From positions 13,052 through 77,051 of IMG/VR virus record IMGVR_UViG_3300017917_001176: a DNA stretch of 64,000 nucleotides; one strand, given 5' to 3'. Position 1 is the first letter of the stretch, and the number at the start of each line of letters is the position of its first letter. The translations under genes and the position numbers were made by a program. Under the pieces are notes generated by a model. That model had not been told where the DNA came from. It searched no databases and was given only the letters and a program-made list of their open reading frames with translations. The stretch is from a virus. Of this stretch, positions 4,897 to 29,654 are shown piece after piece.

Positions 4897-5095
4897 TCCG
4901 GCACCCAACGGATACGATTACAATCAAGATTATTACGACAGCATGGATGCCTGGGCACAAGAACACTGTGCCAGTTATGTAGGATACATTGTGGTTGATG
5001 TTGCAGATGTCAGCGCCTTTTGGGACGAAATTGGCGAATACGAATTTCGTGACCCAAAAGATGCAATGGCTTTTACATTAAAATTTAAACACTGA
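4871..5095 (+). CDS. phage hypothetical protein
   Basis: 74 aa; C-terminal [14 protein letters not shown]. Confidence 0.6.
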
Positions 5096-5390
5096 AGCTG
5101 CTGCCGCAACCACAGGTTGTTTGTGCGTTGGGATTCTTGATTACAAACTGACTGCCCATATCGTTTTCTTCGTAGTCTAACACTGCACCAGTTAGGTACT
5201 GCATGCTCATGCTGTCTACTAGAACTTTGCCTAATTCAAAGTCATCTTCTTCTTTGGCTTGTTCAAAATCAAACACATAGTTGAATCCTGAACATCCGCC
5301 GCCTTGAATTGATATACGCAGATAAGGTTCTGCATTTTCTGCAAGGCCCATGTCAATTTCTTTGACTGCTGTTTCTGTAATTGTGATCAT
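5085..5390 (-). CDS. erpA: A-type Fe-S cluster carrier, ErpA-like
   Basis: GGGCSGF.Y.F and [14 protein letters not shown]; true start MITITE at 5390 overlaps the iscU stop (ATGA). Confidence 0.88.
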
Positions 5391-5764
5391 TGGTGTTTTC
5401 CTTTGTAGTCTGCAATTGCTGCTTTGATTGCGTCTTCTGCTAGAATGCTGCAATGTATCTTAACAGGAGGCAATGCCAGTTCTTCTGCAATAACAGAATT
5501 TTTAATGGTCTGCGCCTCATCCAAGGACATGCCTTTTAGCATTTCTGTTACCAGGCTCGAACTGGCAATGGCACTACCGCAACCGTATGTTTTAAACTTT
5601 GCATCTTCAATGATACCTGCATCGTTTACTTTAATTTGTAGTTTCATTACGTCACCACACGCAGGCGCACCTACCATGCCTGTGCCAATGCTGTCGTCAA
5701 TGTCGAACTTGCCCACGTTACGTGGATTTTCATAATGGTCAATCACTTGATTTGAATATGCCAT
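5387..5764 (-). CDS. iscU: Fe-S cluster scaffold IscU
   Basis: [27 protein letters not shown] and LPPVKIHC. Confidence 0.96.
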
Positions 5765-5766
5765 AG

Positions 5767-6087
5767 TTATACCCTAAAACTTTCTCCGCATCCGCAGCGG
5801 TCACGTTCATTTGGATTCTTAAAATCAAATCCTTCATTAAGTCCCTGGCGTATGTAATCCATTTCCAGACCCGACACGTATGCTAGACTCTTAGGGTCAA
5901 CAAAAATATTCACGTCGTATGATGTGTATTGTACATCCTCTGGATCGGGGGTGTCAACGTATTCGAGTTTGTATGCAAGTCCGCTACAGCCTGTGGTGCG
6001 AACTCCTACCCTAATGCCCACACCGTGTCCGCGATGGGCGATAGTTTTCATGACCTTTTCGGCCGCTTTTTGAGTTAATGTTATCAT
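5767..6087 (-). CDS. iscA: Fe-S cluster assembly protein IscA
   Basis: TTGCSGLAY.LEYVD, GLNEGF.F.NPN and CGCGESF. Confidence 0.93.
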   Translation of the reverse strand: MITLTQKAAEKVMKTIAHRGHGVGIRVGVRTTGCSGLAYKLEYVDTPDPEDVQYTSYDVNIFVDPKSLAYVSGLEMDYIRQGLNEGFDFKNPNERDRCGCGESFRV

Positions 6088-6126
6088 GTTGTCTGGGTGT
6101 CCTATTGTAAATTAGTGCCAGCTTTG

Positions 6127-6141
6127 TATTTATTGTAAATA
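6127..6141. promoter_or_regulatory. back-to-back late-promoter boxes (TATTTA-ttg-TAAATA)
   Basis: Minus-strand TAAATA at 6127-6132 faces iscA; plus-strand TAAATA at 6136-6141 is 5 nt before ATG 6147. Confidence 0.6.
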
Positions 6142-6146
6142 TTCAT

Positions 6147-6722
6147 ATGAAGCCTGTTTTAATGATTCACGAAATGAGTGAGTCTATTTTAGCACTGCCC
6201 TTGAAGAATTATGTGCTAACATTTGACGATGCTCTTTACAGCCAGTACTACTATTGGCCGCAATTGCGTGATATACCCACGCAAAAATACTTCTTTGTAA
6301 GCTCAGACATACTGTGTGTAAATGGCATACAAAGTCAAGAATTCCCTTCTTGTACCGCAGCACATGCCAAAGCAGCCACGGGCAACTACGAAGATTACAT
6401 GACCTTGTCGCAGTTAAAAGAACTAGCACAAGACCCCAGAGTAACCATTGGCGGGCACGGGCATGTTCATAAAGATCTACGCAAAACACAAGGTCTACAA
6501 AATCGTATCACTTTCATGCTAGAAGACACAGAACGCATGCTCAACTGGTTTGACACTAATCTTCAATTTAGACCAACTGCATTCTGCTATCCTTACAACA
6601 ACGATGTGGATCAATTGTACACTGCGGTTTTACAACGTGCTGGCTTCAAGCAATTTTTCGGTCGTGAGCGAACACCAGTTGAAACGCTTCTGCAAAACAC
6701 GCACCTATCTGAGTGCCTCTGA
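6147..6722 (+). CDS. polysaccharide deacetylase (NodB/CE4-like)
   Basis: LTFDD, GGHGHVH and FCYPY motifs. Confidence 0.85.
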   Translation: MKPVLMIHEMSESILALPLKNYVLTFDDALYSQYYYWPQLRDIPTQKYFFVSSDILCVNGIQSQEFPSCTAAHAKAATGNYEDYMTLSQLKELAQDPRVTIGGHGHVHKDLRKTQGLQNRITFMLEDTERMLNWFDTNLQFRPTAFCYPYNNDVDQLYTAVLQRAGFKQFFGRERTPVETLLQNTHLSECL

Positions 6723-7296
6723 GCACTGCCAGTGCTTCCATACTTTCAACTGATCTAGCATCAGGATACTCATAGGTCTCGGTGTCATACCATGACAGTA
6801 CAGTTCTTTTGGTGTCCATGTAATCTGTTATATCCACCCACTGATTGGCCTGCATGATTGTGCCTGTGGCCCAGTTAACTGAGTTTTCACACATGTACAA
6901 TCTTTTTACTGTGCAATCTGCTTTTGGTCTGCATGCAACCAGCGCAGCTTCTGCTGTTAACTTATGATCTCTATGCAGGTCATCACGATGATGTGTGTAC
7001 ACTACATCAATATCCAACTGCTGTACCAACTGAGATATGTGTTCAACTGCATGTGTATAATCTAGATGCACATCATCAGCTTCACCAATCACAGAGTTTG
7101 CCCCCAACATCTGACACACACGTTGAAATGTTTGTTGCCGTGCTTCCTCAACGTATTCTGCATTTGGTCTATTACCTCTGCACAAGCTGGCTATCCATAC
7201 TCTATGCCCATCTGCGGTTAGTTTTCTAATGGTACCGGCTGGCCCAAACGCTTCATCATCTGGGTGTGCAAATACAAACAGTATGTTCTGTTTCAT
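6646..7296 (-). CDS. PIG-L/LmbE family deacetylase
   Basis: AHPDDE and H..D.HRDH motifs; C-terminal AEAF. Confidence 0.9.
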   Translation of the reverse strand: MKQNILFVFAHPDDEAFGPAGTIRKLTADGHRVWIASLCRGNRPNAEYVEEARQQTFQRVCQMLGANSVIGEADDVHLDYTHAVEHISQLVQQLDIDVVYTHHRDDLHRDHKLTAEAALVACRPKADCTVKRLYMCENSVNWATGTIMQANQWVDITDYMDTKRTVLSWYDTETYEYPDARSVESMEALAVLRGTQIGACFAEAFQLVFAHDRKIA

Positions 7297-8222
7297 AGCA
7301 TGTCCTTGATAATACTGTCTAGGTCGTATGCGGGCACGTATCCTGTTACTGTTTTAATCTTGCTTAGATCCGGAACACGCATGTCAATGTCACCGTGATT
7401 CTTGCTGAATGCTTGTTCATAGGGTACATGCACTATTTTGCTACCTGAACCACTGAGTTCAATCACACGTTCAGCCAATTGATTTATAGTAACAGGCTGG
7501 TCGTTGCCAATGTTAAACAGCTCTCCATTTACAGTGGATACTTTGAGCAATGCGTTCATGGCATCTTTAACATGACAAAAACTGCGCACCTGTGTGCCAC
7601 TGCCGTATATGATCAAGTCTTCATTGCGTTTGGCTGCATTAACAAAGCGTGGCAGTACCATACCGTAGTCGCCCAACTGTCCAGGTCCTGTTACATTAAA
7701 GAATCGTACCAGTGTGAACGGAAAGTTACTGGCGCGAATCTGAAACTCAGTCATTAGTTTTGCTGTGGCATACCCCCAACGCAGTTTGCTACTGGGGCCA
7801 ATGCTGGCATTGGCTTCTTCGTGGAACGGACCGTTGCCGTATATCTCACTGGTGCTGGAGAATACCACATGACGTTTGGCTTTTTGAAAGAATGGAATTA
7901 GTTTATTGTTTAGTGCAATGTTGTTGAACAGTGTGCCACTAGGGTCTTTGTCAATGTGTTCTACTCCAACACTGCCTGCCAGGTGCCAGATCTTGTCGTG
8001 CTTGCGCACAATCTGTAACAGTTCATCTTCACTCATGGCAGTTAAATCGCCTTCGATAAAGCGATACAGGTTCTTATGCACAGCAAACTCCTCGCGAGGA
8101 TCGCTGCTGGTAGCTAGATTATCAATCACAGTAACGCCCACATGGCGTTCACGTTGATTAAACAGTGTGTGAGTCAGGTGCCGACCAATGAAGCCCGCGC
8201 CGCCCAGAATTAAATGATTCAT
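7293..8222 (-). CDS. NAD-dependent nucleotide-sugar epimerase/dehydratase (ArnA/UXS-like SDR)
   Basis: GGAGFIG, SSTSEIYG, RWGYATAK (YxxxK), RFFNVTGP, G.G.QVRSF; start taken at ATG 8222. Confidence 0.9.
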   Translation of the reverse strand: MNHLILGGAGFIGRHLTHTLFNQRERHVGVTVIDNLATSSDPREEFAVHKNLYRFIEGDLTAMSEDELLQIVRKHDKIWHLAGSVGVEHIDKDPSGTLFNNIALNNKLIPFFQKAKRHVVFSSTSEIYGNGPFHEEANASIGPSSKLRWGYATAKLMTEFQIRASNFPFTLVRFFNVTGPGQLGDYGMVLPRFVNAAKRNEDLIIYGSGTQVRSFCHVKDAMNALLKVSTVNGELFNIGNDQPVTINQLAERVIELSGSGSKIVHVPYEQAFSKNHGDIDMRVPDLSKIKTVTGYVPAYDLDSIIKDML

Positions 8223-8772
8223 ATATTTCACCTAGTGTTATTGCTTCTGAAAATACAGGTCTAAGATCTGCCATGGCTCTTACTACATCTCGTACATGTG
8301 CAATGGCATGCAGCTGATCCGGATTCTCAGGTTTGTGTGCAGTACCCATCACGCAGCGTTTAACAAAGCTGTCCGGATCTGCATCTTCACCGTATACAGA
8401 TGGCAAGCGATAGTTTACACATTCGCGTCCTGTGTGCTTTAGATAGATTTCCATGCACCGCTTGGCTACATTATACGCACCTTGCGCCGTTTCTGCAATA
8501 TGTTCAGCACCAAAACTGCTGGCATTAACAAACACTGCATCGGAGTCAATGGCAAGAGCTTTTCGAGTTAGATCCATGATAGTATCCATTACACCTGTGG
8601 TATCTTCTTTGATACGTGCAGTTGTAGCAGGGCAAGCCAGGTGATAGATTCTTTCGCATGATACAGGCGTGAAATCACGGTCAATCAGCACCACGTGGTG
8701 GCCTCTACGCTGCAATTCCACCACTAAATGTCGGCCTATAAAGCCAGTGTGCCCTGTTACTGCGATTTCCAT
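8158..8772 (-). CDS. short NAD-dependent epimerase/dehydratase (UXS-like N-terminal region)
   Basis: GHTGFIG, IYHLACPA, YNVAK, RLPSVYG. Confidence 0.8.
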   Translation of the reverse strand: MEIAVTGHTGFIGRHLVVELQRRGHHVVLIDRDFTPVSCERIYHLACPATTARIKEDTTGVMDTIMDLTRKALAIDSDAVFVNASSFGAEHIAETAQGAYNVAKRCMEIYLKHTGRECVNYRLPSVYGEDADPDSFVKRCVMGTAHKPENPDQLHAIAHVRDVVRAMADLRPVFSEAITLGEIYESFNSGRRGLHWSAPDSHTV

Positions 8773-9236
8773 ACTGCGTTATCCCATCCTAATCGAATAA
8801 ATCGTACACCAGGTTTTTGTAATCCTTCTTTGACTGCGCGAACAAAACTGCTGCAATCTTCTGGTTCATACAGTGGTATGTCTAGCGCATCCATAAGTGC
8901 GGCATCATCGGCAACAAGGTGGCCACGCCCACAGATGCTATAACAGCCATTATGTCCAGCATTAACAAAAATAATACTGCCCGTGTTTTCGGCCCAACCT
9001 TTGATATTAAGTTTAATTTGCTCATATGCTTTGTAGATAACGAATCCTGCGACTCCGTATATAATTACTTTCTTTCCTTGACTAGCCAGCCCTGCTGCAA
9101 TGTTAACCATGTTGGGTTCTTGCACACCGCAATTGATTTGTTTATAATCACCGTCGGTCCACTTCCACATGTCTCCATGCAAGAAATAAACTTCGCCCGG
9201 GTAGCGTGAAAGAAACTTATGTAAGGTTGCTCGCAT
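8757..9236 (-). CDS. split transketolase, pyrimidine-binding subunit (no C-terminal domain)
   Basis: NCGVQEPNMVNIAAGLA and AYEQIK; only 159 aa. Confidence 0.8.
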   Translation of the reverse strand: MRATLHKFLSRYPGEVYFLHGDMWKWTDGDYKQINCGVQEPNMVNIAAGLASQGKKVIIYGVAGFVIYKAYEQIKLNIKGWAENTGSIIFVNAGHNGCYSICGRGHLVADDAALMDALDIPLYEPEDCSSFVRAVKEGLQKPGVRFIRLGWDNAVWKSQ

Positions 9237-10488
9237 CTGCTAACCATTCATGATAGATTTTGCCACGGTGAATATTAATTAATTCATAAGGATCAATTTG
9301 TTCCCGTGGAGCCTGCGCCATGCCAAAACCGCTAAGAACATATTCCCAGGCTTCAGCAGGAAAAATATCAGTTTCTTTGTAGGGTTCAATTGACAGTGTT
9401 TTAAAATGATCCCAATACTCATTGCTGCGCTCTGAATATCTATAGTGTGCAGCAATAAAATTAACAATGGCATCAAAGTTCTCGTTGATCTGTTGATTGT
9501 ATTCTGCCTCAGTTAACTTACCATCAATGTATGCACCAATCTTTTCAATGCTGCTGATGATCAAATAGATGCCTGTGCTTTCCAATGGTTCAATAAAGGT
9601 TGCAGCAAGACCAATGCCAACCACGTTGTCCTGTAGATGCACACGATTGCGACCTGTAATAAAGTTCACTGTGTTAACTTCGGGTGGCTCAACTCCTGTG
9701 TAGTCTTTTACGTGGGCAACAAACTCCTGGTGTACATCAAACCGTTTGTCATGCACATACCCAAATGCTAGCCTATCGCCCAGTGGAATATGCCAGCACC
9801 AACCATGTTCCATTGCCTTAAACATACTGTAGGGCTTGCACTGTTTAGCACGGTCAGTGTACAGTACACGAGTGGTCAATGCGCAATTGTTTGGAATGAT
9901 ATGACTGAAGTCTTCAAAGTTGTTTTCACGTTTGCTTACATGTCTAGCAAAGCCTGTGCTGTCGATCAGTAGATCGTAAGTGCCAGCCAGTTCTTCTTTG
10001 GTTGCAGTCTTACGGATCACTGTTAGATTGGGCATTTCGTGTAAACGTGTGTCTAGATATGCTGCCATTTCAGTTGTGCGGAAATGTGTGGCAATGTCTG
10101 GGTATTGTAAAATCTCATCCGGTATACGTTCTGTTTCAATGATACGATTGATACTAGCGGTATTGTGTTTTCCAATTTCACCAATGCCAAAAGGAAAACT
10201 AAAACGCTCACCAGGTCTGTTGAACCCATCAAACACAATGCCCAACTTTAACGTACCGTTGCAATGCTTGATAATATTTTCGTGTGTGATATCAATGCTT
10301 TTTAAAAAGTGACTGCTCTTGGGCACTAATGCTTCGCCCACGCCAATTGGATCATTCACCTCAGGAAATATCCAGGTGATAGATTTGTCTTTGTAGGTTT
10401 TTGCAAAGTAAAAGGCTGCTAGGTAGCCGCTAGTTCCGCCACCAACGATTGTAATTCTGTTGATGTCTCGATCTTTTTGTAGTGCCAT
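9217..10488 (-). CDS. flavin-dependent halogenase (tryptophan halogenase family)
   Basis: GGGTSG, GVGEA, GTLKLGI.F (catalytic Lys region), WCWHIP (WxWxIP), FIEPLESTG. Confidence 0.88.
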   Translation of the reverse strand: MALQKDRDINRITIVGGGTSGYLAAFYFAKTYKDKSITWIFPEVNDPIGVGEALVPKSSHFLKSIDITHENIIKHCNGTLKLGIVFDGFNRPGERFSFPFGIGEIGKHNTASINRIIETERIPDEILQYPDIATHFRTTEMAAYLDTRLHEMPNLTVIRKTATKEELAGTYDLLIDSTGFARHVSKRENNFEDFSHIIPNNCALTTRVLYTDRAKQCKPYSMFKAMEHGWCWHIPLGDRLAFGYVHDKRFDVHQEFVAHVKDYTGVEPPEVNTVNFITGRNRVHLQDNVVGIGLAATFIEPLESTGIYLIISSIEKIGAYIDGKLTEAEYNQQINENFDAIVNFIAAHYRYSERSNEYWDHFKTLSIEPYKETDIFPAEAWEYVLSGFGMAQAPREQIDPYELINIHRGKIYHEWLADASNLT

Positions 10489-11138
10489 TTTTTGATATCC
10501 TCTGTCATTGATTTTACGCCATGCCCTTTTTGTGTTTTACAAAACACTATGTTAGGAATATTGTCCACCAGGTTAGCAAACGCCTGTCCTAGTTTTTGTT
10601 TGTCGTGTCCATTGACTTCTTGTACCCACCAATGGTAGTGTCTACAAAAGTCTTTAACCGGGTTTACCTTAAGCACGTCAGACACTGTTCCTGTAACCTG
10701 TGCGTTATTGTAGTCCACAGTAACAAATATGTTGCTGATCTGATGATGCCCAATAAACTGTAGTGCTTCCAGCGTATTGCCCATTTGCAGTGTGGCGTCT
10801 GTGATGTTTACCCACACACGTTGCCCAGGGTCTGCTAGTGCGATCCCAATGGCAACACCTAGTGCATTGCCCATGGTTTCTTCACCGTAGTCCACAAACA
10901 ACAACTCGTCGTGCTTGACTCCTACGCTTAAATCTTCTATTGTTCCTAGGTAGCCCAGCTTGCGCCACACTAGATAGTATGCTTGTGAACCAAAAGGCTT
11001 GCCAATAACAATGTGGTCCTTATAAGGTTTCACAATGCCGTCTGTGAACAACACATCCACATAGTCCAGCATGCTCAGGGCACTAGGAATATGACTCAGT
11101 TGCTGCTGATAGGAATATTCTAACAGTTCCTTTTTCAT
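10419..11138 (-). CDS. split transketolase, N-terminal ThDP-binding subunit
   Basis: HIPSALS..D, MGNALGVAIGIAL, variant ThDP motif TDATLQMG...DYNN, VNGHD, TQKGHG, KWHY. Confidence 0.8.
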   Translation of the reverse strand: MKKELLEYSYQQQLSHIPSALSMLDYVDVLFTDGIVKPYKDHIVIGKPFGSQAYYLVWRKLGYLGTIEDLSVGVKHDELLFVDYGEETMGNALGVAIGIALADPGQRVWVNITDATLQMGNTLEALQFIGHHQISNIFVTVDYNNAQVTGTVSDVLKVNPVKDFCRHYHWWVQEVNGHDKQKLGQAFANLVDNIPNIVFCKTQKGHGVKSMTEDIKKWHYKKIETSTELQSLVAELAAT

Positions 11139-11851
11139 ACAAACAACTCCTTGGGCAAATTACCATTCATCATTCTAATGCTGATCTGTTCTCGCTGTAC
11201 GTCAAATTTACCAAACTGAAAAACTCGTTCAGGAGTATCACCGTTCATTATGTACTTGGGTACTTCGTAACTCCACCGCCAGCTGTTCCAAATTGGATAT
11301 AACATTTTGATTTCATTGTTAACAAATCCGTAGTAGGAAACATCGTTCACTGGAAACAGATATAATCGAACGCCATCACGCCAGGTGTACTCTTTTGTTT
11401 TAGCATACAGTTGACTGAAACGATGTGCTGCCACTGCGGTTAACTGTGCAGGTGTTGCCTGCTGTTCTAGATTTGTATAGTAGATAAAATTATCATCTTC
11501 GTATTCAATTGGCGGCATGATATCAAATTCGTCACTGCGAGTGATCTGCTCAAAACGATTGATTATAAGAGCTCGCTGCTCGAGGTCCAGCGCATCACCA
11601 AACTCTGCTGGTAGTACTCTATTCCATCCAGACTGCATTCTAGCAAAGTATTCTGGATTGTGTTGATTGATTAAATGTATGTACTTGAATGTAAAATTAA
11701 TTGACCGTGGAACAATTACCTGCTGCGCTGTTCTAAAATGAAAATGATAATAACTGTTGTTGCGTTTGGCTTCCTCTACCGTTGCATCAGGTAACAAGGA
11801 AGCCAATTGTTCAAACGTTTGAACTAGAAAGTAATTGTCCTGATCAAACAT
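11135..11851 (-). CDS. hypothetical protein in modification cluster
   Basis: 238-aa ORF coupled to both neighbours. Confidence 0.65.
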   Translation of the reverse strand: MFDQDNYFLVQTFEQLASLLPDATVEEAKRNNSYYHFHFRTAQQVIVPRSINFTFKYIHLINQHNPEYFARMQSGWNRVLPAEFGDALDLEQRALIINRFEQITRSDEFDIMPPIEYEDDNFIYYTNLEQQATPAQLTAVAAHRFSQLYAKTKEYTWRDGVRLYLFPVNDVSYYGFVNNEIKMLYPIWNSWRWSYEVPKYIMNGDTPERVFQFGKFDVQREQISIRMMNGNLPKELFV

Positions 11852-20793: not shown

Positions 20794-20811
20794 AATGAAC
20801 TTACATTGCTG

Positions 20812-21918: not shown

Positions 21919-21920
21919 CC

Positions 21921-22322: not shown

Positions 22323-22323
22323 G

Positions 22324-22974: not shown

Positions 22975-22986
22975 TTCTATTTCCTT

Positions 22987-23370
22987 TTAAATTTCTTTTT
23001 TAAGAAAATCTAAACTGTCAGCTGCTTTGGTCTGCGCTAAAAACTTTTCGTAGTCGTCTAGATCTGATGTAATAAATTCCAAGGTGGCTGCGTCTGGCAC
23101 TTTAGTACTCAAAATTTCAGTTTCGGTCTGCAAGGAATTGGTTAGAATATGACTGACCAATTGCTCTAGGTCGTATCCCAGTGCCTTGGACACAAAGTCA
23201 ACCTGCTGTGTGAGATCCACTGTTTCGCGTTTGCCAGCTTCTGCAACTGCTTGAATGGTATTCACTGTGATGCCAAATCCTTCTAGTAGCAGCGCACCAA
23301 CAGTTGGATCCTCATCGCTGATCTCTTTGATAAGTGCATAAATTTGTTCGATTTTTTCAACGATAGTCAT
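22987..23370 (-). CDS. small acidic accessory protein
   Basis: 127-aa ORF between the Cys-repeat gene and a radical SAM gene. Confidence 0.65.
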   Translation of the reverse strand: MTIVEKIEQIYALIKEISDEDPTVGALLLEGFGITVNTIQAVAEAGKRETVDLTQQVDFVSKALGYDLEQLVSHILTNSLQTETEILSTKVPDAATLEFITSDLDDYEKFLAQTKAADSLDFLKKEI

Positions 23371-24266
23371 GTTAGTTCCTTGTCTTTAAAGTCATGAAAT
23401 TTTGGAGAGTTTTCGTAATTCTCGTACGTTGTGACATTACCTTCGTCCGTATAATACGTTTTGAGCTCTTTTCTTTCACCACAACCACTGCACATGTCGC
23501 AGAAAAGCTCGCAAACAGGCGTGGATATAGTCTTATTTATCCAGTCCTGACGCAGCAGCTTTTTTGCATCTTGCAGCTTTTGCATGTCTTCGGGCTGTAG
23601 TGTGCTCCAGGCCACGCTGGTGATCAGGCGCCCTGGGCGGAATGTTTTAATAACACGAGTCATGTCTTCATACAGGTGATTTATGTTGCCCTGCTGTATG
23701 GTATATCTAATGCGGAATTTTACTCCGTTTTTTAACAGATTGCGAAACACCTGTATCATCATAGGAGTGGACTCTGTTCCAGCATGTGTTACTCTGTCCT
23801 GATTACCAATACCGTCAAAACTAACATCAATGCTCAACAGTCCACGCTGGTAGAAAAACGTGTTTTTAACTTCGTCAATAAACCGCTGACTTAGGAATTT
23901 GATGCCATTGGTTTCCAAATTAAAATGCACATTGTTCTTTTTATTGTATGCGTATTCCATTGCATAGCACACGTTCTCCCATTCCAATGTGGCTTCGCCG
24001 CCAAACAGTACAATCAATGTTTGGTTATCTGGATTTTCTCTAGCCAGTATCGAATCAATGGAGTCTCGTATGTTTTGCTTTGATAGTATCTGCGGAGGCC
24101 GACCTGGCAAATCCTCGTAGCAGTAGGTACACGCCAAATTGCACTTGTTGGTAAAGTATAGAACATTAACGCCAGATCCTGCGGGTGTAGGAAGATCTGT
24201 TTTATCGCCTACATAAAAGTTTAGGCCAGGGTTCGCACCAACAAAGGATCCAACAATCTGACTCAT
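23367..24266 (-). CDS. radical SAM enzyme, peptide-maturase-like, short C-terminal Cys cluster
   Basis: CNLACTYC, FGGE, TNG, SFDG, CELFCDMCSGC. Confidence 0.9.
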   Translation of the reverse strand: MSQIVGSFVGANPGLNFYVGDKTDLPTPAGSGVNVLYFTNKCNLACTYCYEDLPGRPPQILSKQNIRDSIDSILARENPDNQTLIVLFGGEATLEWENVCYAMEYAYNKKNNVHFNLETNGIKFLSQRFIDEVKNTFFYQRGLLSIDVSFDGIGNQDRVTHAGTESTPMMIQVFRNLLKNGVKFRIRYTIQQGNINHLYEDMTRVIKTFRPGRLITSVAWSTLQPEDMQKLQDAKKLLRQDWINKTISTPVCELFCDMCSGCGERKELKTYYTDEGNVTTYENYENSPKFHDFKDKELT

Positions 24267-24583
24267 TGTATAATCATCTTATGTTTGTTTTTGTATCGCT
24301 CTTCTTCACGCATGGCTTTTGCTTGTTTGATTATATGACTCATGTTTTCTAAAAAACGCACATAGTCATATTTGTAGTCAAACAGATGTCCACGCTCGTC
24401 GAGTTCAAAGCCAACATACTGACTGTCTACCTTGGCTTTACCTTTACGTGCTTCATCAATCTGCGCTTGTAACTCTTCTGTGGTTAACACTCGATTGCTT
24501 GCATGCTCAACAGGCTGCATCTCAACCTTGATAGGTACAGCAATAATACTCTTAAAAGATTTTTTTGGTTTTAGTTCCGACAT
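24263..24583 (-). CDS. small accessory protein
   Basis: 106-aa ORF coupled between two radical SAM genes. Confidence 0.6.
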   Translation of the reverse strand: MSELKPKKSFKSIIAVPIKVEMQPVEHASNRVLTTEELQAQIDEARKGKAKVDSQYVGFELDERGHLFDYKYDYVRFLENMSHIIKQAKAMREEERYKNKHKMIIQ

Positions 24584-25695
24584 TCCACACCCTCGTTTTC
24601 TACACCAACGTTTTCAATGTAATGCAATATCAAGTCTTGGAACAATGGTTCATCGCGGCATTCTTCAACCACACGCATGGCCTGTTCATAATAGATATGA
24701 AACAGTTCGCAGATACTGTCCAATGGCTTGTTATCATTCATAACCTGACTATAGGTACAGCCTGCATTACATACCTGCTTGAGATCGCAAGGCTCGCACT
24801 TGTCATAGCTGCCTGGATTGAAAATCTTTTGATAGTACTTGAAGTCGTATGCTTCGTCCATCTTCATGATCTTCTTGCTGGCAAAACGAGCACAGGGATA
24901 AAACTCTCCTGAACTCATTAGCACACCGCCATTGGTTCCTGCGAAGCAACCAAACTGTCGCTTGCCTTTGACCAAGCCGTATAGAATATCTAGTATGGCC
25001 AATCTTAAAAATCCAACACTGCACGGAACGCCTTCTTTGATCTTCTTGATCCAGAATGTTGCTAGACGTTCGCATTCATAGCGGAATTCAACAATGTCTT
25101 CTCTGGTCCATACGTCATCTCTTACGATAGAGAAGTCAGGATGCTCGATGCCCCAGCTTAATAGGAACTCAAAGTTCTCTACCATGTCCTTGGTGTTGCC
25201 AGGCCAAATCATCACCTTGCATCCGTTGGTAAGACCAGTGATCAATTCCTTCTTGTAATTGTACATGTCCAGAATACCGTCAAACAGTTCACCTGTTTCT
25301 GGATTGGTATTTTCCAACAGCGGCAACAAAGGTCGTGTTTCGTTAGAGCTCATACCGTCAAAGCTCCAACTAACACCCACACCGTTTTCTCTAAGATAAG
25401 TGGCTTTTTCCTCATCAATCATGGTGAGGTTGGTAATGATGTTAATACCCTTACACTTTTTGTCTGCTCTGAGTTTAGGTACTGCATGTTTGATCAAATC
25501 AAAGTTCAACAGCGGCTCGCCACCAAAGAAACTCACGTGATACTCTGCATCACCTGATCGTAACATCAGCTTGTGCAGATCCACTAGACCTTTGTCAAAT
25601 ATTTCGTTGGTCATCCAAGTAGGACGGTTGGCCACATAACAATACGGGCAACCTAAATTACATTTTTCTGTTACGCTTACTTCTAGAGTGAACAT
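24571..25695 (-). CDS. radical SAM/SPASM peptide-maturase-like enzyme
   Basis: CNLGCPYC, FFGGEPLL, SFDG; SPASM CFAG..G.FYPC..CEPC....CNAGC...C. Confidence 0.92.
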   Translation of the reverse strand: MFTLEVSVTEKCNLGCPYCYVANRPTWMTNEIFDKGLVDLHKLMLRSGDAEYHVSFFGGEPLLNFDLIKHAVPKLRADKKCKGINIITNLTMIDEEKATYLRENGVGVSWSFDGMSSNETRPLLPLLENTNPETGELFDGILDMYNYKKELITGLTNGCKVMIWPGNTKDMVENFEFLLSWGIEHPDFSIVRDDVWTREDIVEFRYECERLATFWIKKIKEGVPCSVGFLRLAILDILYGLVKGKRQFGCFAGTNGGVLMSSGEFYPCARFASKKIMKMDEAYDFKYYQKIFNPGSYDKCEPCDLKQVCNAGCTYSQVMNDNKPLDSICELFHIYYEQAMRVVEECRDEPLFQDLILHYIENVGVENEGVECRN

Positions 25696-26789
25696 TGCTC
25701 TGCCTCAAATTTAATCACTGGCTTTTTATAACTCTTGAGTGCAGTACGCAGTGCATGATGAACGATCTCATTGCTTTTGAATACTTTGCAAACCTGCCAG
25801 TTACTGGTGTGGTCGCTCCACTTCTCAAGGTATGTATCTTTCTCAGACTTTTCATATGTGGCTGCATTACATTTCATACAGAACTGACTGTCGCAGCTAA
25901 TACAGTCCAGCGGCTGATTCTTCAGCGCATCTCTGTACATGTCTGTTTTTTCTTTAATCAGTGCATCTAGGTCTGGTGCCTTAAAGATGTTGCCAATCAC
26001 GTGTGCATGAGATTCTTTGTACATACAACCGTGGCAAGGACTGATATCGCCATTCAAGTCTACGCTGATATAGTTGATACCAGATGCACACAAGGCACGA
26101 CTTTGTGTGAACCAACCAAACTTTTCCGGAGGCAGTTTGTTTACATAGATGTACTTGGCAATCTTGGTCAAGCCTTCTTTAAGCACTTCCAGGCGCGGCA
26201 TGAACTCTTCTTCAGTTAACTGTGAGTACATGTCGGGTGTTGGAAAGTAGTTTTCGTCTAGTTCAATTACATCAAGAAACGCTTCGTAGATCAAATGAAA
26301 GTGTTCTGCTGTGAGTACGCTTTTCATGCGCACGTTCAAGCCTGCTTGCTTGGCAGCAAGGTAGTTTGATTTAACCAATGTAGAACTTGGATTGCCTGCC
26401 TTGTCAATACGAGTAATATCGTTTACTGGCTTGCCATCATAGCTGACCTGAATATTCAAACGATTTGGCATAGCTTCGTGCAAACGCACTAGATCCTTAA
26501 GATACTTTTTCAAGTATACGCCATTGGTGTAAAAGAAAAAGCTGTAGTTGGTGTCGTCTTTGTATTTCTCCATTACGCCACGGCAGAAGTCATAGTTAAC
26601 AAATGGCTCGCCGCCCCAGAAGTAAATATCCTTCTTGGGATCGCTGATTTTGTTCATGAACTCTTCGATGTTTTCCAAGGTTACTTCTGTGTTTTCCTCG
26701 TATGCTGTGCTCAGACCGCACTCAAATCCTTCTGAACAGTAGGTGCAAGCTAGATTGCAAGTACTGGTTACATTAATATCAATTACCAT
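25683..26789 (-). CDS. radical SAM/SPASM peptide-maturase-like enzyme
   Basis: CNLACTYC, WGGEP, TNG, SYDG; CASG..GDISPCHGC..CISC...CMKC...C. Confidence 0.92.
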   Translation of the reverse strand: MVIDINVTSTCNLACTYCSEGFECGLSTAYEENTEVTLENIEEFMNKISDPKKDIYFWGGEPFVNYDFCRGVMEKYKDDTNYSFFFYTNGVYLKKYLKDLVRLHEAMPNRLNIQVSYDGKPVNDITRIDKAGNPSSTLVKSNYLAAKQAGLNVRMKSVLTAEHFHLIYEAFLDVIELDENYFPTPDMYSQLTEEEFMPRLEVLKEGLTKIAKYIYVNKLPPEKFGWFTQSRALCASGINYISVDLNGDISPCHGCMYKESHAHVIGNIFKAPDLDALIKEKTDMYRDALKNQPLDCISCDSQFCMKCNAATYEKSEKDTYLEKWSDHTSNWQVCKVFKSNEIVHHALRTALKSYKKPVIKFEAEQCSL

Positions 26790-27516
26790 TTCTATACCCT
26801 TTGTTAAGTTCTAATACGGTGTCCAACAATGCTAGTTTGTATTTATGGGTTAAAGCCTGCGTGTCTTTGGGCAAGCAAGGGCCGCCAAATCCTCGCTGGC
26901 CGTCTGGCCCAGGAACTGCAAAGTGATGTGAACCCATCCACGGATGCGTGGACAAAATCTCTGCCGCAGTAGCATAATCTGCACCCATATCCTGGGCAAC
27001 ATCATAAATGGAATTCATGTATGTTACTTTGAGCGCATAGAATGTATTCATTGTGTATTTTATAAGAGATGCCGTGGGAATGTCAACCAAATAACAGTTT
27101 GATGTGTCCACAGTTGATTCTCTAGCATACAGATCCAGCAGCTCTTGCCCACGCCGGCCGCCAATGATCAGGTATTCTGGATTAACAAAATCCTCTAGAG
27201 AAGTGCTGCGAGTTAAAAACTCTGGGTTGTACAGCACATCAAACCCTGCGAGATGCTCTGGCAGCACTGTGCTTTTGACCACCACTAGACCTGTGTAGTT
27301 GGAGTCTTTGATTTCTTGTAAAACTGATTTGAGCAGTGCGTAGTCTGTGCCATCCGAGGGTGTAGGAACGCACACAAAGATTGCATCCAGCTCCATTTTG
27401 CAAAGGTGCTTGACGCTTACTGTGTTATATTTAGGGTCTGAGTAAAATACTTGAGTTTTGGAAAAGCCGTGTTTGACGGCTCTTCCAACCATGCCGTAGC
27501 CAATAATTCCGATCAT
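26779..27516 (-). CDS. ugd: UDP-glucose/GDP-mannose 6-dehydrogenase (short form)
   Basis: GYGMVG, CVPTP, KST, NPEFL, KY..N.F.A.K, GFGGPCLPKD. Confidence 0.88.
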   Translation of the reverse strand: MIGIIGYGMVGRAVKHGFSKTQVFYSDPKYNTVSVKHLCKMELDAIFVCVPTPSDGTDYALLKSVLQEIKDSNYTGLVVVKSTVLPEHLAGFDVLYNPEFLTRSTSLEDFVNPEYLIIGGRRGQELLDLYARESTVDTSNCYLVDIPTASLIKYTMNTFYALKVTYMNSIYDVAQDMGADYATAAEILSTHPWMGSHHFAVPGPDGQRGFGGPCLPKDTQALTHKYKLALLDTVLELNKGYRNGN

Positions 27517-27521
27517 AACAA

Positions 27522-27527
27522 TATGTA
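27522..27527 (-). promoter_or_regulatory. variant late-promoter box TACATA
   Basis: 5 nt before the ugd ATG, the same spacing as three TAAATA boxes elsewhere. Confidence 0.45.
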
Positions 27528-27546
27528 TGCGGCGCTAGGGCCGCAT
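27527..27546 (-). terminator. GC-rich hairpin after the fibre gene (weak terminator or stability element)
   Basis: ATGCGGC-6 nt loop-GCCGCAT perfect 7-bp stem; no clear U-tract. Confidence 0.45.
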
Positions 27547-27552
27547 CCAATA

Positions 27553-29622
27553 TTATCTAACCTGAACTACGGACATTACCAATGCTTCTTCGGCAGTTTC
27601 TTTGTTTTCTAGTGCGCGACCAAGTACATTGAATGCAGTTGCTTCGCCATCAGCAGCAGCACGAGCACATCCGTTGCCAGCTGATACCAATCGCTGTCCT
27701 TTGGTTACTTGTCCTACCACACGAACATTAACACGACCAGTTAGTGCAATAGGTGGATGTGTGTCATTGTCTCCTGCACCTTCATTCATCAGGTACGCAA
27801 AGTTATGACTTACTACACCAAACACTGTTTCGCTGGCATCTGTGTTTTCTTGTGTGACTTCGTGTGTGCCACCAATAGTAACCACAGTTCCTTCTGGGTA
27901 CGCAGCATCAGCAGCAAAACGTTCTGCCAAGTCAGCGTATGTTGCACGGAAGGTTGCGCCCGATGCCAATTGCCATGTACCAGTAACAATACTGGTACTC
28001 AAGCCTGAGTGAATACCTTTAACGTAAGCATTACCAAACATCTGTGCGCTGCTACCAATGTCACCTGTTCCGCTGGTGCCACCTTTAACCACACTGTGAA
28101 CGTTTGCAGCAGTCACATACACAGTACCAAATCGCATGTCTGGCTGGCCAATATCACCAATACCTGGGGTTGTGCCAGATGTTGCGCCATGCACAATACT
28201 GTGTACGTTGGCTGTGTTGGCGTAGAAATCTCTAAAGCGGTTGCCTTCGTTAGCTAGGTCACGAATGTTGTTTTGGTCAGGTGCTAGTACACCCAAGATA
28301 CTGGAAGTACCGTCACGTAACAATGATCCGGTGCTCAATGTGCCCAGTGTGCTTTGAATTGATCTAACGTTAGAGAACATACTGGCTGTTGCAGCAGGTG
28401 CAATACCAGGATTACTCAACACGTTGGCATGAATAGCAGCAACGTTGGCCCACAGTGCAACCACGTTGGCTGCAAAGTTTTGACCAGAATTCATAATCTG
28501 ATTCCACTGAGTGCTGTTGCCCAACAATGAACCAGCTGTGTAAATGCCCAACTCGCTTTGTAGTACACGAACGTTACCGTACACTGAATTGGTGTTTGCT
28601 GTCAACGCAGTGATAGATGAGTTGATAGTGTTGGTGTTAGACGCAATAAAACCTTTGATAGCATTATCAGCAGTATCCACATAACCTTTGGTAGCAATAC
28701 CAAGTACGCCAGTTGGGTCTGCGTTCACTGTGATCAAGCCAGTGTTTCTATCAACAGTTAATACGTTAACGGAAGTACCGCCTGCATTTTCTGGTTTGGT
28801 TGCAATAATAAAACCATTGCCGCGATATACGCTGGACAGTGTTAGGTTGTTGTCGTTAACACTGATTTCTGCATAATCAATTGTACCACCAGTTTCTGTA
28901 ATCTTGATACCGTCAGTGTTCTGAATTTCAATCTGCGCATCAACCACTGGTGTGGTTTTGGTTAGATAGTTTGCTGCAAGAATACCGCCTAGGTAAGAGG
29001 TGTTGTTTGCATTCTCATAGTACACCAGAGCTGGAATACGATCAGTTGCTAGGTTGAAACCTGGCTTGACTGTTAGGAATCCTGGAATAGCAGGGCTTGG
29101 AGTAAACGCTGTGTCCTTGCTTAGAATAGCAACCAAGTTGTTCTGTACAAAGAACTTAACAACCACGTGGCTAACCAAGCCGCTGTCAATAATGGTGTCA
29201 GCAATCGCGCCTGACGTACCAGTGGTGGCAGTAAAGCTAGGACCAATAACAATCCAGCTTGCGCCTGAATATGTTTTCAACTGTTGATTAACTGTGTCAA
29301 ACCACAAGTCGCCTGCAATGGCATTGCTTGGGGCATCGCTGGTGCTTTGTGCTCCAGAGATAGTTTTCCAGTTACCAAACTTGTCGTATACCTGTAGTAA
29401 ACGAGTATCAGTTCTCCACCAAAGTTGTCCGACAATTGGGTTCAGTGGCGCCGATGACGATGCAAAGTTTTCTAGCAGTCGTATAAAGTTCTCATTAAGG
29501 AACGTGCCATAACCAGCATAGTTTTTCCCAATCAGTGTCAAGCTACTAGCAGAACTGTTGGTTTGTCCATCTGCTACTGTAGCTAACGGTGTTCCATCCG
29601 TTTTAATAATGTTATAACTCAT
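27553..29622 (-). CDS. tail fibre/appendage protein with C-terminal G2-type (ADLAE) autochaperone domain
   Basis: N-terminal virion anchor shared with 29659..32073; ATKGYVD fibre motif; C-terminal YADLAERF..GVVS..IALTGRV.V.V.G. Confidence 0.75.
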   Translation of the reverse strand: MSYNIIKTDGTPLATVADGQTNSSASSLTLIGKNYAGYGTFLNENFIRLLENFASSSAPLNPIVGQLWWRTDTRLLQVYDKFGNWKTISGAQSTSDAPSNAIAGDLWFDTVNQQLKTYSGASWIVIGPSFTATTGTSGAIADTIIDSGLVSHVVVKFFVQNNLVAILSKDTAFTPSPAIPGFLTVKPGFNLATDRIPALVYYENANNTSYLGGILAANYLTKTTPVVDAQIEIQNTDGIKITETGGTIDYAEISVNDNNLTLSSVYRGNGFIIATKPENAGGTSVNVLTVDRNTGLITVNADPTGVLGIATKGYVDTADNAIKGFIASNTNTINSSITALTANTNSVYGNVRVLQSELGIYTAGSLLGNSTQWNQIMNSGQNFAANVVALWANVAAIHANVLSNPGIAPAATASMFSNVRSIQSTLGTLSTGSLLRDGTSSILGVLAPDQNNIRDLANEGNRFRDFYANTANVHSIVHGATSGTTPGIGDIGQPDMRFGTVYVTAANVHSVVKGGTSGTGDIGSSAQMFGNAYVKGIHSGLSTSIVTGTWQLASGATFRATYADLAERFAADAAYPEGTVVTIGGTHEVTQENTDASETVFGVVSHNFAYLMNEGAGDNDTHPPIALTGRVNVRVVGQVTKGQRLVSAGNGCARAAADGEATAFNVLGRALENKETAEEALVMSVVQVR

Positions 29623-29647
29623 TCCTTAAACTCCAATTTGTTTTTAA

Positions 29648-29654
29648 TATTTAT
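29648..29654 (-). promoter_or_regulatory. late-promoter box ATAAATA
   Basis: Intergenic, upstream of the fibre gene start at 29622. Confidence 0.6.

Follow-up and report, generated by a model that had tools for sequence, protein, structure and literature searches.

Radical SAM genes beside the tail-fibre genes of a giant phage suggest enzymatic finishing of a cysteine-repeat virion protein

Why would a giant, T4-like phage carry ten radical SAM (rSAM) enzymes next to its tail-fibre genes? The question is raised by the window analysed here, a stretch of 64,000 nucleotides from IMG/VR virus record IMGVR_UViG_3300017917_001176. In a preliminary description, about 27 tightly coupled minus-strand genes were proposed to form a new system that decorates a part of the virion. 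The ORF listing of the window gives 30 minus-strand ORFs (5085-29622), with junctions of -74 to +36 nt apart from a single 558-nt gap (6088-6645). The genes are thus tightly spaced and co-directional as described, but the run is broken once: the gap contains a plus-strand polysaccharide-deacetylase-like ORF (6147..6722; PF01522, 24.5 bits), which separates an isc cassette from the remaining genes. Directly upstream of the block, on the same strand, lie the genes of a 689-aa fibre or spike protein (fib689, 27553..29622), a tail fibre of 804 aa (fib804, 29659..32073; phrog_5795, E 2e-31) and a 6190-aa virion protein, as well as T4-type baseplate genes, so the block indeed runs on from the tail-fibre genes. 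A terminator-like hairpin (27527..27546) separates fib689 from the enzyme block. All features given below with coordinates are on the minus strand.

The count of ten rSAM enzymes was confirmed, as all ten match PF04055 above the cut-off, and every one has a CxxxCxxC motif and 4-8 C-terminal Cys. Seven of them are rSAM1 (11851..12939), with a C-terminal match to TIGR04084 and a SPASM/twitch-like C-terminus; rSAM2 (13759..14742), rSAM3 (14685..15605; 42% identical to rSAM2) and rSAM6 (17237..18154), which form one paralogue family; rSAM4 (15590..16345); rSAM5 (16335..17282); and the AlbA/HxsC/NirJ-like rSAM7 (18797..19873), 45% identical to its orthologue in Campylobacter phage CPt10. The other three are candidate core maturases, and PapB is the top NCBIfam match for each of them: rSAM8 (23367..24266; 74 bits), which has a CxxxCxxCxxC tail and its own orthologue clade, and the SPASM-type candidates rSAM9 (24571..25695; 125.7 bits) and rSAM10 (25683..26789; 68.9 bits, with PF13186 SPASM). 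The rSAM9 profile matches the SCIFF thioether synthase CteB (5WGG, E 8e-34) across both the core and the SPASM region, and the full SPASM set CX2CX5CX3C is conserved in this enzyme, with seven conserved SPASM Cys. None of the three reaches the curated family cut-offs (PapB 125.7 of 340, SCIFF 73.6 of 425, CrpC family 24 of 525). An RRE domain was looked for in rSAM8/9/10 and none was found; rSAM9 and rSAM10 begin at the radical SAM motif.

The single Cys-repeat protein of the preliminary description is present as a fibre-type protein of 216 aa (22324..22974), consisting of an N-domain (residues 1-115), four heptads C-[T/L]-C-N-C-N-Y (CTCNCNY repeats) with 12 Cys within residues 116-144 (DNA 22543-22629), and an S74 chaperone (residues 145-216). 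Part of the heptad stretch is encoded by a 21-bp DNA repeat at 22543-22623. The heptads stop exactly at the S74 self-cleavage motif S-D-Q-R-L-K, which is followed by the PF13884 domain; because this self-cleaving chaperone comes directly after the last heptad, cleavage should leave the repeats as the exposed C-terminus of the protein in this phage. The family comprises at least 638 proteins, and of 585 heptads 99% have N or D at position 4, 94% have N at position 6 and 97% have Y at position 7. An S-D-x-R-L-K motif occurs in 101 of 120 relatives among the matches listed, and the heptads of the Campylobacter phages are internal in the protein, without an S74 domain. AlphaFold leaves the heptad repeat without structure (pLDDT ~30).

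We compared 82 heptad loci and found rSAM10-type enzymes in 78, rSAM9-type in 74 and rSAM8-type in 70; loci found via the Cys protein all had rSAM8/9/10 homologues where the flank was long enough. In the reverse direction, the rSAM9 profile retrieved 54 loci (L039-L092, 34-90% identity), and in 46 of them a heptad ORF of at least three units shares the strand of rSAM9 and lies no more than a few kb from it, usually 2-4 kb downstream. The exceptions are contig ends, Campylobacter phages, whose repeat protein is encoded at another place in the genome, and two degenerate cases. Among loci in genome contigs, 3-6 CxxxCxxC ORFs lie near six of seven heptad loci, in contrast to none of 20 S74-only control loci (Fisher p ~2e-5). 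A linkage of the Cys-repeat protein and SPASM-type enzymes by synteny across very divergent phages is supported by these gene neighbourhoods. In a quick ML tree, rSAM8 (SH-aLRT 97), rSAM9 (100) and rSAM10 (94) form distinct clades, and since each clade holds the window, the minimal lineages and CPt10, the three enzymes are old and not redundant. The minimal lineages (e.g. L014, L066, L083) keep the three core enzymes and lack every sugar gene, as well as the other seven rSAM, halogenase and U32 genes. The ten rSAM enzymes, described as one set, therefore divide: three co-vary with the repeat protein, together with small partner ORFs, while seven are optional. By comparison, the core is a small protein in which C-[T]-C-[N/D]-C-N-Y heptads come after a helical N-terminal domain, with three rSAM enzymes travelling along. 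In L056, a close relative, the enzymes are kept and the Cys protein is reduced to an S74 remnant, for which a deletion or a collapse in the assembly may be responsible. Conserved gene order is no proof that the heptad protein is the substrate of rSAM8/9/10.

Around these core genes lie many others. The fibre gene fib689 is found in 48 of the 82 heptad loci, as is a 307-aa protein (19870..20793; phrog_24441), which also occurs in CPt10; a 106-aa protein (24263..24583) is in 42, and an acidic 127-aa protein (22987..23370) is restricted to the window's clade. A helical 133-aa partner protein (unk133, 21921..22322; phrog_25260) is a conserved neighbour; it was ruled out as an RRE, being all-helical and without a PDB match. 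The sugar enzymes that had been described are present: a PIG-L/LmbE-type deacetylase (6646..7296; PF02585, 73 bits), an NAD-dependent sugar epimerase/dehydratase (7293..8231; PF01370, 143 bits), a short SDR epimerase-like protein (8158..8772; PF01370, 54 bits), a split, transketolase-like TPP enzyme with a pyrimidine-binding half (8757..9236; weak PF02779, 39% identical to CPt10 gp146) and a diphosphate-binding half (10419..11138; PF00456, PF02775), a GT2 glycosyltransferase (18141..18800; PF00535, 37.7 bits) and a truncated UDP-glucose-dehydrogenase-like protein (26779..27516), which retains GGPCLPKD and is missing the UDP-binding domain. The halogenase is equally clear (9217..10488; PF04820, 219 bits), flavin-dependent and with GGGTSG and WCWHIP motifs. 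The U32-like protein (12923..13822; likely start M21 at 13762) can be kept only as a distant relative: its match of 16.7 bits is below the cut-off of 22.4, but the same weak match recurs in eight of ten orthologues, an Atlas feature search returns 'collagenase and related proteases', and four Cys are invariant. For the protein at 20812..21918 (Atlas score 0.95; invariant R186 and P188 in IIRNPS), the ten best Atlas family matches are all sulfotransferases, and we take the assignment as sulfotransferase-like as a lead only. A 238-aa protein without Cys (11135..11851) has no Pfam or PHROG match.

At the far end, the isc genes are as had been described, with IscU (5387..5764; PF01592, 173 bits; three ligand Cys present) between two A-type Fe-S carriers, one IscA/ErpA-like (5085..5453; PF01521, 60.5 bits; C...CGC motif; likely true start M22 at 5390, where it overlaps the stop of IscU) and the other at 5767..6087 (PF01521, 68.2 bits). 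They do not belong to the cluster itself: in the window they are set apart from the block by the opposite-strand gene and have their own ATAAATA box, in a complete relative they are 75 kb away from the cluster, and in CPt10 there are none. Judged by gene order, the isc genes are a separate, movable module; the additional C-terminal Cys found in each of the ten rSAM enzymes give them a rationale here. No cysteine desulfurase was found in the virus record. The promoter-like boxes said to be common to the cluster, the isc cassette and the structural genes are in part as claimed. ATAAATA occurs eight times, always on the minus strand, and five copies lie in rare intergenic gaps, upstream of IscA2 (the late-promoter-like box of the isc cassette, 6127..6133), of fib689 (29648..29654) and of three baseplate or structural genes. 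Yet the total is not above chance (8 observed, 10.2 expected), and within the enzyme block the box is found only inside coding sequence, so that late promoters common to the block and the structural genes are at most plausible.

The same gene set, scattered, is found in the cultured Campylobacter Firehammerviruses CP220, CPt10 and IBB_35. ESI-MS/MS of purified virions detected the IBB_35 gene 3-9 product, with a coverage of only 2.6% (PMC3322345 Table S2), which agrees with the view of the repeat protein as a virion part; this product is 92.5% identical to CPt10 gp145, the CTCDCNY protein. Taken together, these data suggest that a conserved phage module serves the enzymatic finishing of a virion protein that the phage itself encodes.

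Could the heptads be a structural motif instead? They might form a trimeric fibre segment in which the Cys bind metal or form disulfides, with the enzymes making a separate product (e.g. a tailored sugar or glycan meant for the virion or for the host surface) and sitting beside the fibre genes merely as fellow late functions. The T4 gp37 tip has His-x-His iron sites, Cys at i, i+2 and i+4 would share one face of a beta-strand, and S74 chaperones, matched here by PF13884, fold trimeric fibre ends; many genes of the block are, moreover, sugar enzymes, the accessory genes can be missing where the Cys protein is present, and the genes are scattered in CPt10. We nevertheless consider this rather unlikely, as it accounts neither for three CteB/PapB-like enzymes that track the heptads without any sugar gene (L014, L066, L083) nor for S74-only fibre loci being without such enzymes, and the near-invariant Asn/Asp and Thr beside each Cys are acceptors of thioether synthases, not metal ligands.

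There are three further readings. That the genes are auxiliary metabolic genes, boosting the anaerobic or Fe-S metabolism of the infected host, is the published view for CP220/CPt10 and marine T4-like phages (PMC2853527, PMC5332604) and would suit the presence of isc genes. It is very unlikely for this block, which sits in a baseplate-fibre gene run and co-varies tightly with a virion protein, and none of the ten rSAM enzymes reaches a metabolic equivalog cut-off (MoaA, QueE, NrdG etc.). Deazaguanine and thymidine hypermodification pathways do include radical SAM steps, ThyA and DHFR adjoin the block on the other strand, and there are weak QueE and viperin-like matches among the rSAM enzymes, all of which would fit hypermodification of phage DNA or nucleotides, as would the resistance of Firehammervirus DNA to enzymes (PMC3322345). 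The chances of this reading are slighter still, because QueC, QueD, DpdA, hydroxymethyl-kinase and DNA glycosyltransferase genes are absent among the scanned ORFs, the best rSAM matches are peptide maturases, and the reading does not account for a linkage to the heptad protein. Just as improbable is the release of the Cys-repeat segment as a RiPP-like peptide that would act as a toxin, signal or metal chelator, despite a leader-plus-core layout like that of a RiPP precursor and PapB, SCIFF and nif11-type maturases as the nearest families: judging by the motif, S74 cleavage takes off the C-terminal chaperone and leaves the repeats on the N-domain, neither a protease for the N-terminal side nor an exporter was found, and an orthologue was detected in virions.

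We return to the virion protein as the target, and think it somewhat probable that rSAM8/9/10 install thioether-type cross-links on it, the other 20-odd genes being an optional tailoring or glycan set and isc a separate, movable module. Heptad positions 2, 4 and 6 are Thr, Asn/Asp and Asn, acceptor types known from CteB, PapB and NxxcB. In the reducing cytoplasm, before assembly, the three enzymes would abstract hydrogen from these side chains, which would then be joined to the three Cys thiols of the heptad in thioether (ranthionine-type) bridges, giving a rigid tip that withstands both reduction and proteases. The seven further rSAM enzymes, the U32-like, halogenase and sulfotransferase-like proteins, GT2 and the nucleotide-sugar enzymes may add further decoration; their most likely product, on weaker grounds, is a tailored glycan, or else additional chemistry at side chains, on the Cys-heptad or another virion protein, and the link that would make them act on the same target as the core enzymes is weak. 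If the extra C-terminal Cys bind auxiliary clusters, IscU and the two A-type carriers could help to load an estimated 20-30 clusters, with sulfur supplied by a host desulfurase. The proposal of a RiPP-like system directed at the virion is thereby retained in its linkage of SPASM rSAM enzymes to a Cys-repeat protein and its virion target, but not in the classical features: RRE, leader protease and exporter were all looked for and none was found. The lack of an exporter or secretion gene itself makes a virion target more likely than a secreted metabolite.

If true, this could explain why Campylobacter phages have rSAM genes, a puzzle since 2010. Contrary to what had been suggested, the system is only partly new: the rSAM sets of CP220/CPt10 were published in 2010 and those of a marine T4-like phage, with 12 rSAM genes besides a carrier gene, in 2017, both unexplained, and in 2026 the Cys-repeat protein CrpA was reported to receive ranthionine bridges from CrpC (PMC13692751, an article that also cites QhpD/QhpC). 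No link between the rSAM genes and the repeat protein was found in the searchable literature. The rSAM8/9/10 enzymes of the window resemble CteB and PapB but are without an RRE domain, and CrpC/CrpA, in which a Cys-repeat protein is cross-linked by ranthionine bridges at the protein level, offers a precedent for the chemistry that we propose.

The four C-x-C-x-C-N-Y heptads of the window's Cys protein, a 216-aa fibre-type protein (22324-22974, minus strand), lie at residues 116-144 and read C-L-C-N-C-N-Y, C-T-C-N-C-N-Y, C-T-C-N-C-N-Y and A-C-T-C-N-C-N-Y. They are encoded by a 21-bp DNA repeat and are directly followed by S-D-Q-R-L-K and the S74 chaperone domain (PF13884, 29.7 bits, cut-off 22), whose predicted cleavage motif (S145, D146, R148, L149 and K150) is invariant across 68 sequences. 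A protein 97% identical to it was found on a 353-kb contig, and the family, searched at lengths of 118-378 aa, comprises at least 638 proteins with E values up to 1e-3. The heptad grammar was determined from 585 heptads of the best 120 of these 638 members: position 2 is Thr in 76% and otherwise mainly Leu, Val or Ile, position 4 is Asn or Asp in 99%, position 6 is Asn in 94% and position 7 is Tyr in 97%. Repeats follow each other with a period of 7, extended to 8 where an Ala or Ser is inserted. Copy number ranges from 3 to 18 in the 120 best members, with 4 the commonest, and reaches 28 regular copies in the fetched loci of relatives. S-D-x-R-L-K stands after the repeats in 101 of the 120 best members, and proteins that lack S74 often end right after the repeats (loci L010 and L136); a C-terminal repeat end is therefore the common theme of the family.

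An AlphaFold monomer of the Cys protein has a helical N-domain with pLDDT 70-90 and a modelled S74 domain, and gives no structure for the repeat (pLDDT about 30). A Foldseek search with this model gave no match, and tblastn with the protein returned the S74 match only, the repeat probably being masked by the low-complexity filter. In some relatives the chaperone is encoded in a separate ORF or is absent. In four loci (L012:10400-10900, L013:10380-10900, L019:10250-10750 and L023:10380-10900) the heptad ORF ends right after S-D-x-R-L-K-x-x-I-x-Y-[LMFI], and the remaining S74 chaperone forms its own ORF, past an in-frame stop or in another frame; two others (L026 and L027) keep the 12-residue tail with no chaperone remainder nearby. 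Judged from these reading frames, the pattern suggests an intramolecular chaperone that has been split, acts in trans or has been lost. In the phages CP21 and vB_CjeM_WX1 the orthologue is annotated as 'putative N-acetylneuraminate pyruvate lyase' (HE815464.1 / NC_019507.1 74991-76592; OP654737.1 20183-21742), a name for which we saw no support in this analysis. Heptad proteins with radical SAM (rSAM) neighbours are also carried by contigs binned into bacterial or archaeal MAGs (L136, PAAV01000055.1, 161 kb; L120/L126, a Thermoplasmata MAG; L123; L130; L133), which are probably mis-binned phage contigs, or prophages.

The preliminary description proposed looking for co-occurrence of proteins combining Cys repeats and S74 with SPASM enzymes, and such an association was found from both sides. 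A search from the Cys protein retrieved 27 IMG/VR loci, in which homologues of rSAM8, rSAM9 and rSAM10, the three core maturase candidates among the window's ten rSAM enzymes (rSAM1-rSAM10), are present wherever the flank permits; about a dozen of these loci contain an almost complete enzyme block. A search with the rSAM9 profile (A2) gave the loci L039-L092 (34-90% identity), and in 46 of these 54 rSAM9 has a same-strand heptad ORF of at least three units no more than a few kb away, in most cases 2-4 kb downstream. Three of the eight exceptions are contig ends (L059, L070, L079) and three are loci of Campylobacter phages (L087-L089), where the repeat protein is found elsewhere in the genome. 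The seventh, L090, has two heptads plus degenerate units, and the eighth, L056, a close relative with rSAM9 74% identical, keeps the whole enzyme set and has only a 73-aa S74 remnant at the position of the heptad protein (L056:12648-13094); either the sequence was deleted naturally or the repeat collapsed in assembly. In a control using the genome collection, 3-6 CxxxCxxC ORFs were located nearby in six of seven heptad contigs, while neither Cys heptads nor rSAM-like neighbours were found in any of 20 S74-only contigs (Fisher p about 2e-5).

Across 82 fetched heptad loci, a count that includes some contigs fetched twice, 78 have an rSAM10-type enzyme, 74 an rSAM9-type and 70 an rSAM8-type one. 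The unknown ORFs unk133 (21921-22322), unk307 (19870-20793) and unk106 (24263-24583), all on the minus strand of the window, recur in 54, 48 and 42 of these loci, respectively, the 689-aa fibre in 48 and accessory genes in 30-39. Minimal lineages (L014, L066, L083) have only the three enzymes and small partners. In a quick maximum-likelihood tree (IQ-TREE), rSAM7, rSAM8, rSAM9 and rSAM10 form separate clades (SH-aLRT 94-100), each containing the window, minimal lineages and Campylobacter phage CPt10. We conclude that the feature is real and conserved. Remoter rSAM9 relatives (25-33% identity) are mostly without heptads, some having degenerate Cys/Asn/Asp/His repeats at the same position, and beyond these no other tandem-repeat substrate was found in the remote rSAM-rich phage loci of this identity range. 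Other Cys grammars adjoin several remote relatives (L098, L095, L102/L105, L103 and L096), namely CHS[ND] tetrads, CTCNVD hexads and FCPCNCN heptads, in the last of which Phe and Pro replace Tyr and Thr. Three remote phage loci (L100, L110, L116) hold 8-10 CxxxCxxC ORFs and no repeat protein within 10 kb.

The 77-kb IMG/VR record has a CheckV completeness of 17%. Nearly all genes from 63262 down to 5085 are on the minus strand and, in the direction of transcription, T4-type baseplate genes (gp6-, gp25-, gp5- and gp53-like PHROGs) are followed by a 6190-aa protein, two unknown genes, an 804-aa tail fibre, a 689-aa fibre/spike and then the enzyme block. The gene cluster reported at 5085-29654 was borne out with small corrections: ten rSAM genes exceed the Pfam cut-off, every one with CxxxCxxC and 4-8 additional C-terminal Cys, and they are accompanied by a halogenase, a distant U32-like protein, sugar enzymes and isc genes, with junctions that for the most part are overlaps. 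No match to the block was obtained by megablast against 50,697 phage records. The 6190-aa protein is a single ORF (33670-52242, minus strand) whose C-terminal 2000 aa match phrog_10938 'virion structural protein' (E 3.5e-88). On the other side of the block, just before it, plus-strand genes (2-889, 3231-4648) encode a DUF2201 VWA-like or putative metallopeptidase protein, a dihydrofolate reductase and a thymidylate synthase.

The flavin-dependent halogenase is well matched (PF04820, 219 bits), with the FAD motif GGGTSG at residue 16 and WCWHIP at residue 230. The U32-like protein matches PF01136 weakly (16.7 bits, cut-off 22.4), as do eight of ten orthologues (best E 7e-4), in which four Cys are invariant; its Atlas neighbours are 'collagenase and related proteases' (score 0.95), and neither its profile nor that of unk307 gave a usable match to PDB sequences. 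A sulfotransferase-like protein was recognized by Atlas feature search (0.95), where all ten named matches are sulfotransferases, which serves as a lead only; it has no match in Pfam (PF13469 / PF00685), its TM-scores by query to sulfotransferase clusters are 0.39-0.45, and R186 and P188 are invariant. Also encoded in the block are a GT2 glycosyltransferase, a PIG-L protein, a split TPP enzyme and two sugar enzymes of the SDR type. The UDP-glucose dehydrogenase homologue (26779-27516, minus strand) has only 245 aa and ends after the catalytic Cys, keeping the Rossmann motif and GGPCLPKD and lacking the C-terminal UDP-sugar-binding domain. This short form adjoins rSAM10/9 in relatives and is also kept in CPt10 (gp019, 30% identity), and it may therefore have a role other than sugar oxidation. 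Five rSAM genes are consecutive at 13759-18154 (minus strand); rSAM2, rSAM3 and rSAM6 are paralogues (33-42% identical) with rSAM5 as a distant fourth member, and among NCBIfam models this set best matches the uncharacterised STM4011 family, with E values as low as 4e-12.

The block and the isc cassette were originally suggested to share promoter-like boxes with the structural genes. All eight copies of ATAAATA are on the coding strand, and five of them lie in intergenic gaps, of which there are few, ahead of IscA2, the 689-aa fibre gene and three structural genes. The total is not above chance, the T4 late box TATAAATA has no match in the window, leaving the pattern to the shorter ATAAATA, and a sigma-70 promoter scan gave counts at chance level. 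Between the fibre gene and the enzyme block lies a terminator-like hairpin. IscU (PF01592, 173 bits) and two A-type carriers (PF01521, 60.5 and 68.2 bits) are indeed present at the far end of the block, where they were interpreted as its own Fe-S supply, but they stand apart from it: an opposite-strand deacetylase-like gene lies between, the cassette is preceded by its own ATAAATA box, and in the relative genome G002 the isc genes are 75 kb from the cluster. Among the complete or large relative genomes, A-type carriers occur in G001, G002 and G003 and IscU in G002 and G003, with neither seen in G004 or CPt10; no cysteine desulfurase (IscS-type, PF00266) was matched in the 77-kb record, which is a fragment. 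The most fitting view of the isc cassette is that of a movable support module outside the operon.

In rSAM9, C12/C16/C19 and the C-terminal C250, C268, C300-x2-C303-x5-C309-x3-C313 and C329, which include a full SPASM set, are all conserved in 18 sequences; rSAM10 matches PF13186 and rSAM8 has a CxxxCxxCxxC tail. The best solved relative of rSAM9 is CteB, the SCIFF thioether synthase (PDB 5WGG, E 8e-34). The alignment begins at CteB residue 101, so rSAM9 is without the RRE domain, and in both rSAM9 and rSAM10 the radical SAM motif stands at the very start. All three core enzymes have PapB as their top NCBIfam match, with scores far below the cut-off (NF047865, 340 bits; rSAM9 125.7, rSAM8 74.1, rSAM10 68.9); rSAM9 is likewise below the cut-off of the SCIFF maturase (TIGR03974, 73.6 against 425 bits), and the phage enzymes score 22-24 bits, 24.1 at best, against the CrpC family (TIGR04463, rSAM_vs_C_rich, cut-off 525 bits). 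A PqqD-like RRE, fused or discrete, was not found in rSAM9, rSAM10 or unk133. As a discrete RRE, unk133 was rejected: its profile gave weak winged-helix matches only (E 0.1-0.6), and its AlphaFold model (pLDDT 90) is all-helical, with five helices and no Foldseek match in PDB. Neither a leader protease nor an exporter was detected, as no protease or transporter family was matched among 35 ORFs scanned. Rather than being a short precursor, the candidate substrate is 216 aa long and has a folded N-domain as well as an S74 domain. The RiPP-like character proposed for the cluster is supported by the SPASM-type maturases, with no RRE, short precursor, leader protease or exporter found among the proteins examined. 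The system would work like a ranthipeptide or CrpA-type one, yet falls outside every curated family and outside the classical RiPP cluster.

Cultured group II phages of Campylobacter carry a related set. The Firehammervirus members CP220, CPt10, CP21 and IBB_35, which are T4-like myoviruses, have orthologues of rSAM7 (45% identity to the window), rSAM9 (36-37%), rSAM10 (29%) and rSAM8 (28%). By tblastn of the window proteins against its full genome, CPt10 also shares the rSAM2/3/6 type, the mini UDP-glucose dehydrogenase, unk133, unk307, both TPP halves, an epimerase, PIG-L and a CTCDCNY heptad protein, gp145; homologues of the halogenase, isc, GT2 and U32-like genes were not found there. In contrast to the window, the genes are scattered over the genome, and gp145, a 534-aa protein that lacks an S74 domain, has its repeat in the interior. 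It was previously noted that gp145 holds the "sole intragenic 21-bp repeat" and that 11-12 rSAM genes per genome are unexplained, with a metabolic benefit suggested (Timms 2010, PMC2853527). These genes were regarded as metabolic helpers there and in Carvalho 2012, with no link to the repeat protein (PMC2853527, PMC3322345). The IBB_35 orthologue of gp145 is 92.5% identical and its coordinates fall exactly on gene 3-9, whose product is among 38 IBB_35 virion proteins identified by ESI-MS/MS (coverage 2.6%, PMC3322345).

The best-supported mechanism is that the three core rSAM enzymes cross-link the virion fibre-type protein, a reading that we consider, from the sequence comparisons, to have a somewhat better than even chance of being right. 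The core enzymes are accompanied by an optional tailoring/glycan set and a separate Fe-S support module. CteB- and PapB-type chemistry forms thioethers from Cys to Thr, Asp, Glu or Asn side chains, and the known acceptors include Thr for CteB, Asp for PapB and Asn for NxxcB. Thr, Asn/Asp and Asn occupy heptad positions 2, 4 and 6, beside three Cys, and the conserved core enzymes are also three; by analogy, this correspondence of acceptor residues, Cys donors and enzymes is suggestive. We speculate, as an improbable elaboration, that each CTC(N/D)CNY heptad would be stapled three times, each ancient, non-redundant rSAM enzyme serving one Cys position, and that the other seven rSAM enzymes, the halogenase, the sulfotransferase-like protein and the glycosyltransferase would decorate the polycyclic C-terminal rod further. 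The outcome would be a natural-product-like, heavily cross-linked tip on the virion fibre, possibly its receptor-binding end. In a still stranger variant, the phage IscU and carriers would load a rod of iron-sulfur or metal-thiolate type on the Cys ladder of the trimer.

If the three core enzymes do cross-link the fibre-type protein, tailed phages finish a structural protein of the particle by the radical chemistry of peptide antibiotics (RiPPs), which is not described for a virus in the literature that could be searched. Triple stapling, if true, would as far as found be the first case of RiPP-class chemistry applied to a virus particle, and would answer the puzzle of the Campylobacter phage rSAM genes, 11-12 per genome, which have been without explanation since 2010. 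The module is widespread, occurring in many ~200-kb T4-like metagenomic phages and in cultured Campylobacter phages, and the cross-linking question is therefore directly testable with existing phage stocks. Campylobacter phages are studied as biocontrol agents (PMC12398825). The module would also offer new enzymes acting on repeat proteins, and it may matter for how stable virions are or how hosts are recognized in anaerobic or gut environments. Phage "Fe-S auxiliary metabolic genes" would appear in a new light, as serving the phage's own enzyme load.

Among known systems, fibres and spikes with S74 ('Chaperone of endosialidase', PF13884) resemble the Cys protein in their C-terminal domain, with invariant S-D-x-R-L-K directly after the functional part; examples are the endosialidase of phage K1F and the L-shaped fibre of T5. 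One T4-like marine viral genome combines 12 radical SAM genes with an A-type carrier, a set that was read as Fe-S-related auxiliary metabolism only, with no substrate proposed (Nishimura 2017, PMC5332604). A cyanophage paper from the literature search mentions a single unrelated maturase, and no link of rSAM enzymes to a virion or repeat protein was seen in the literature that could be searched. The nearest sequence relatives of rSAM8, rSAM9 and rSAM10 are the maturases of CteB/SCIFF and PapB/freyrasin, with a common SPASM Cys set; unlike the ranthi- and sactipeptide systems, the phage set has no RRE domain, short precursor or exporter, has three enzymes per candidate substrate, and would leave its product in the virus particle. 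In the QhpD/QhpC system, cited in PMC13692751, QhpD acts on a protein subunit. The closest functional precedent is CrpC/CrpA, from Methanococcus voltae (Dieter et al. 2026): there, a SPASM rSAM enzyme that carries three [4Fe-4S] clusters was shown to install ranthionine thioethers on a large protein whose C-terminal part is a tandem Cys-containing repeat and whose N-terminal part is leader-like (PMC13692751). That system differs in being archaeal rather than viral, in its 17-residue repeat unit and in its single enzyme with an RRE (PMC13692751).
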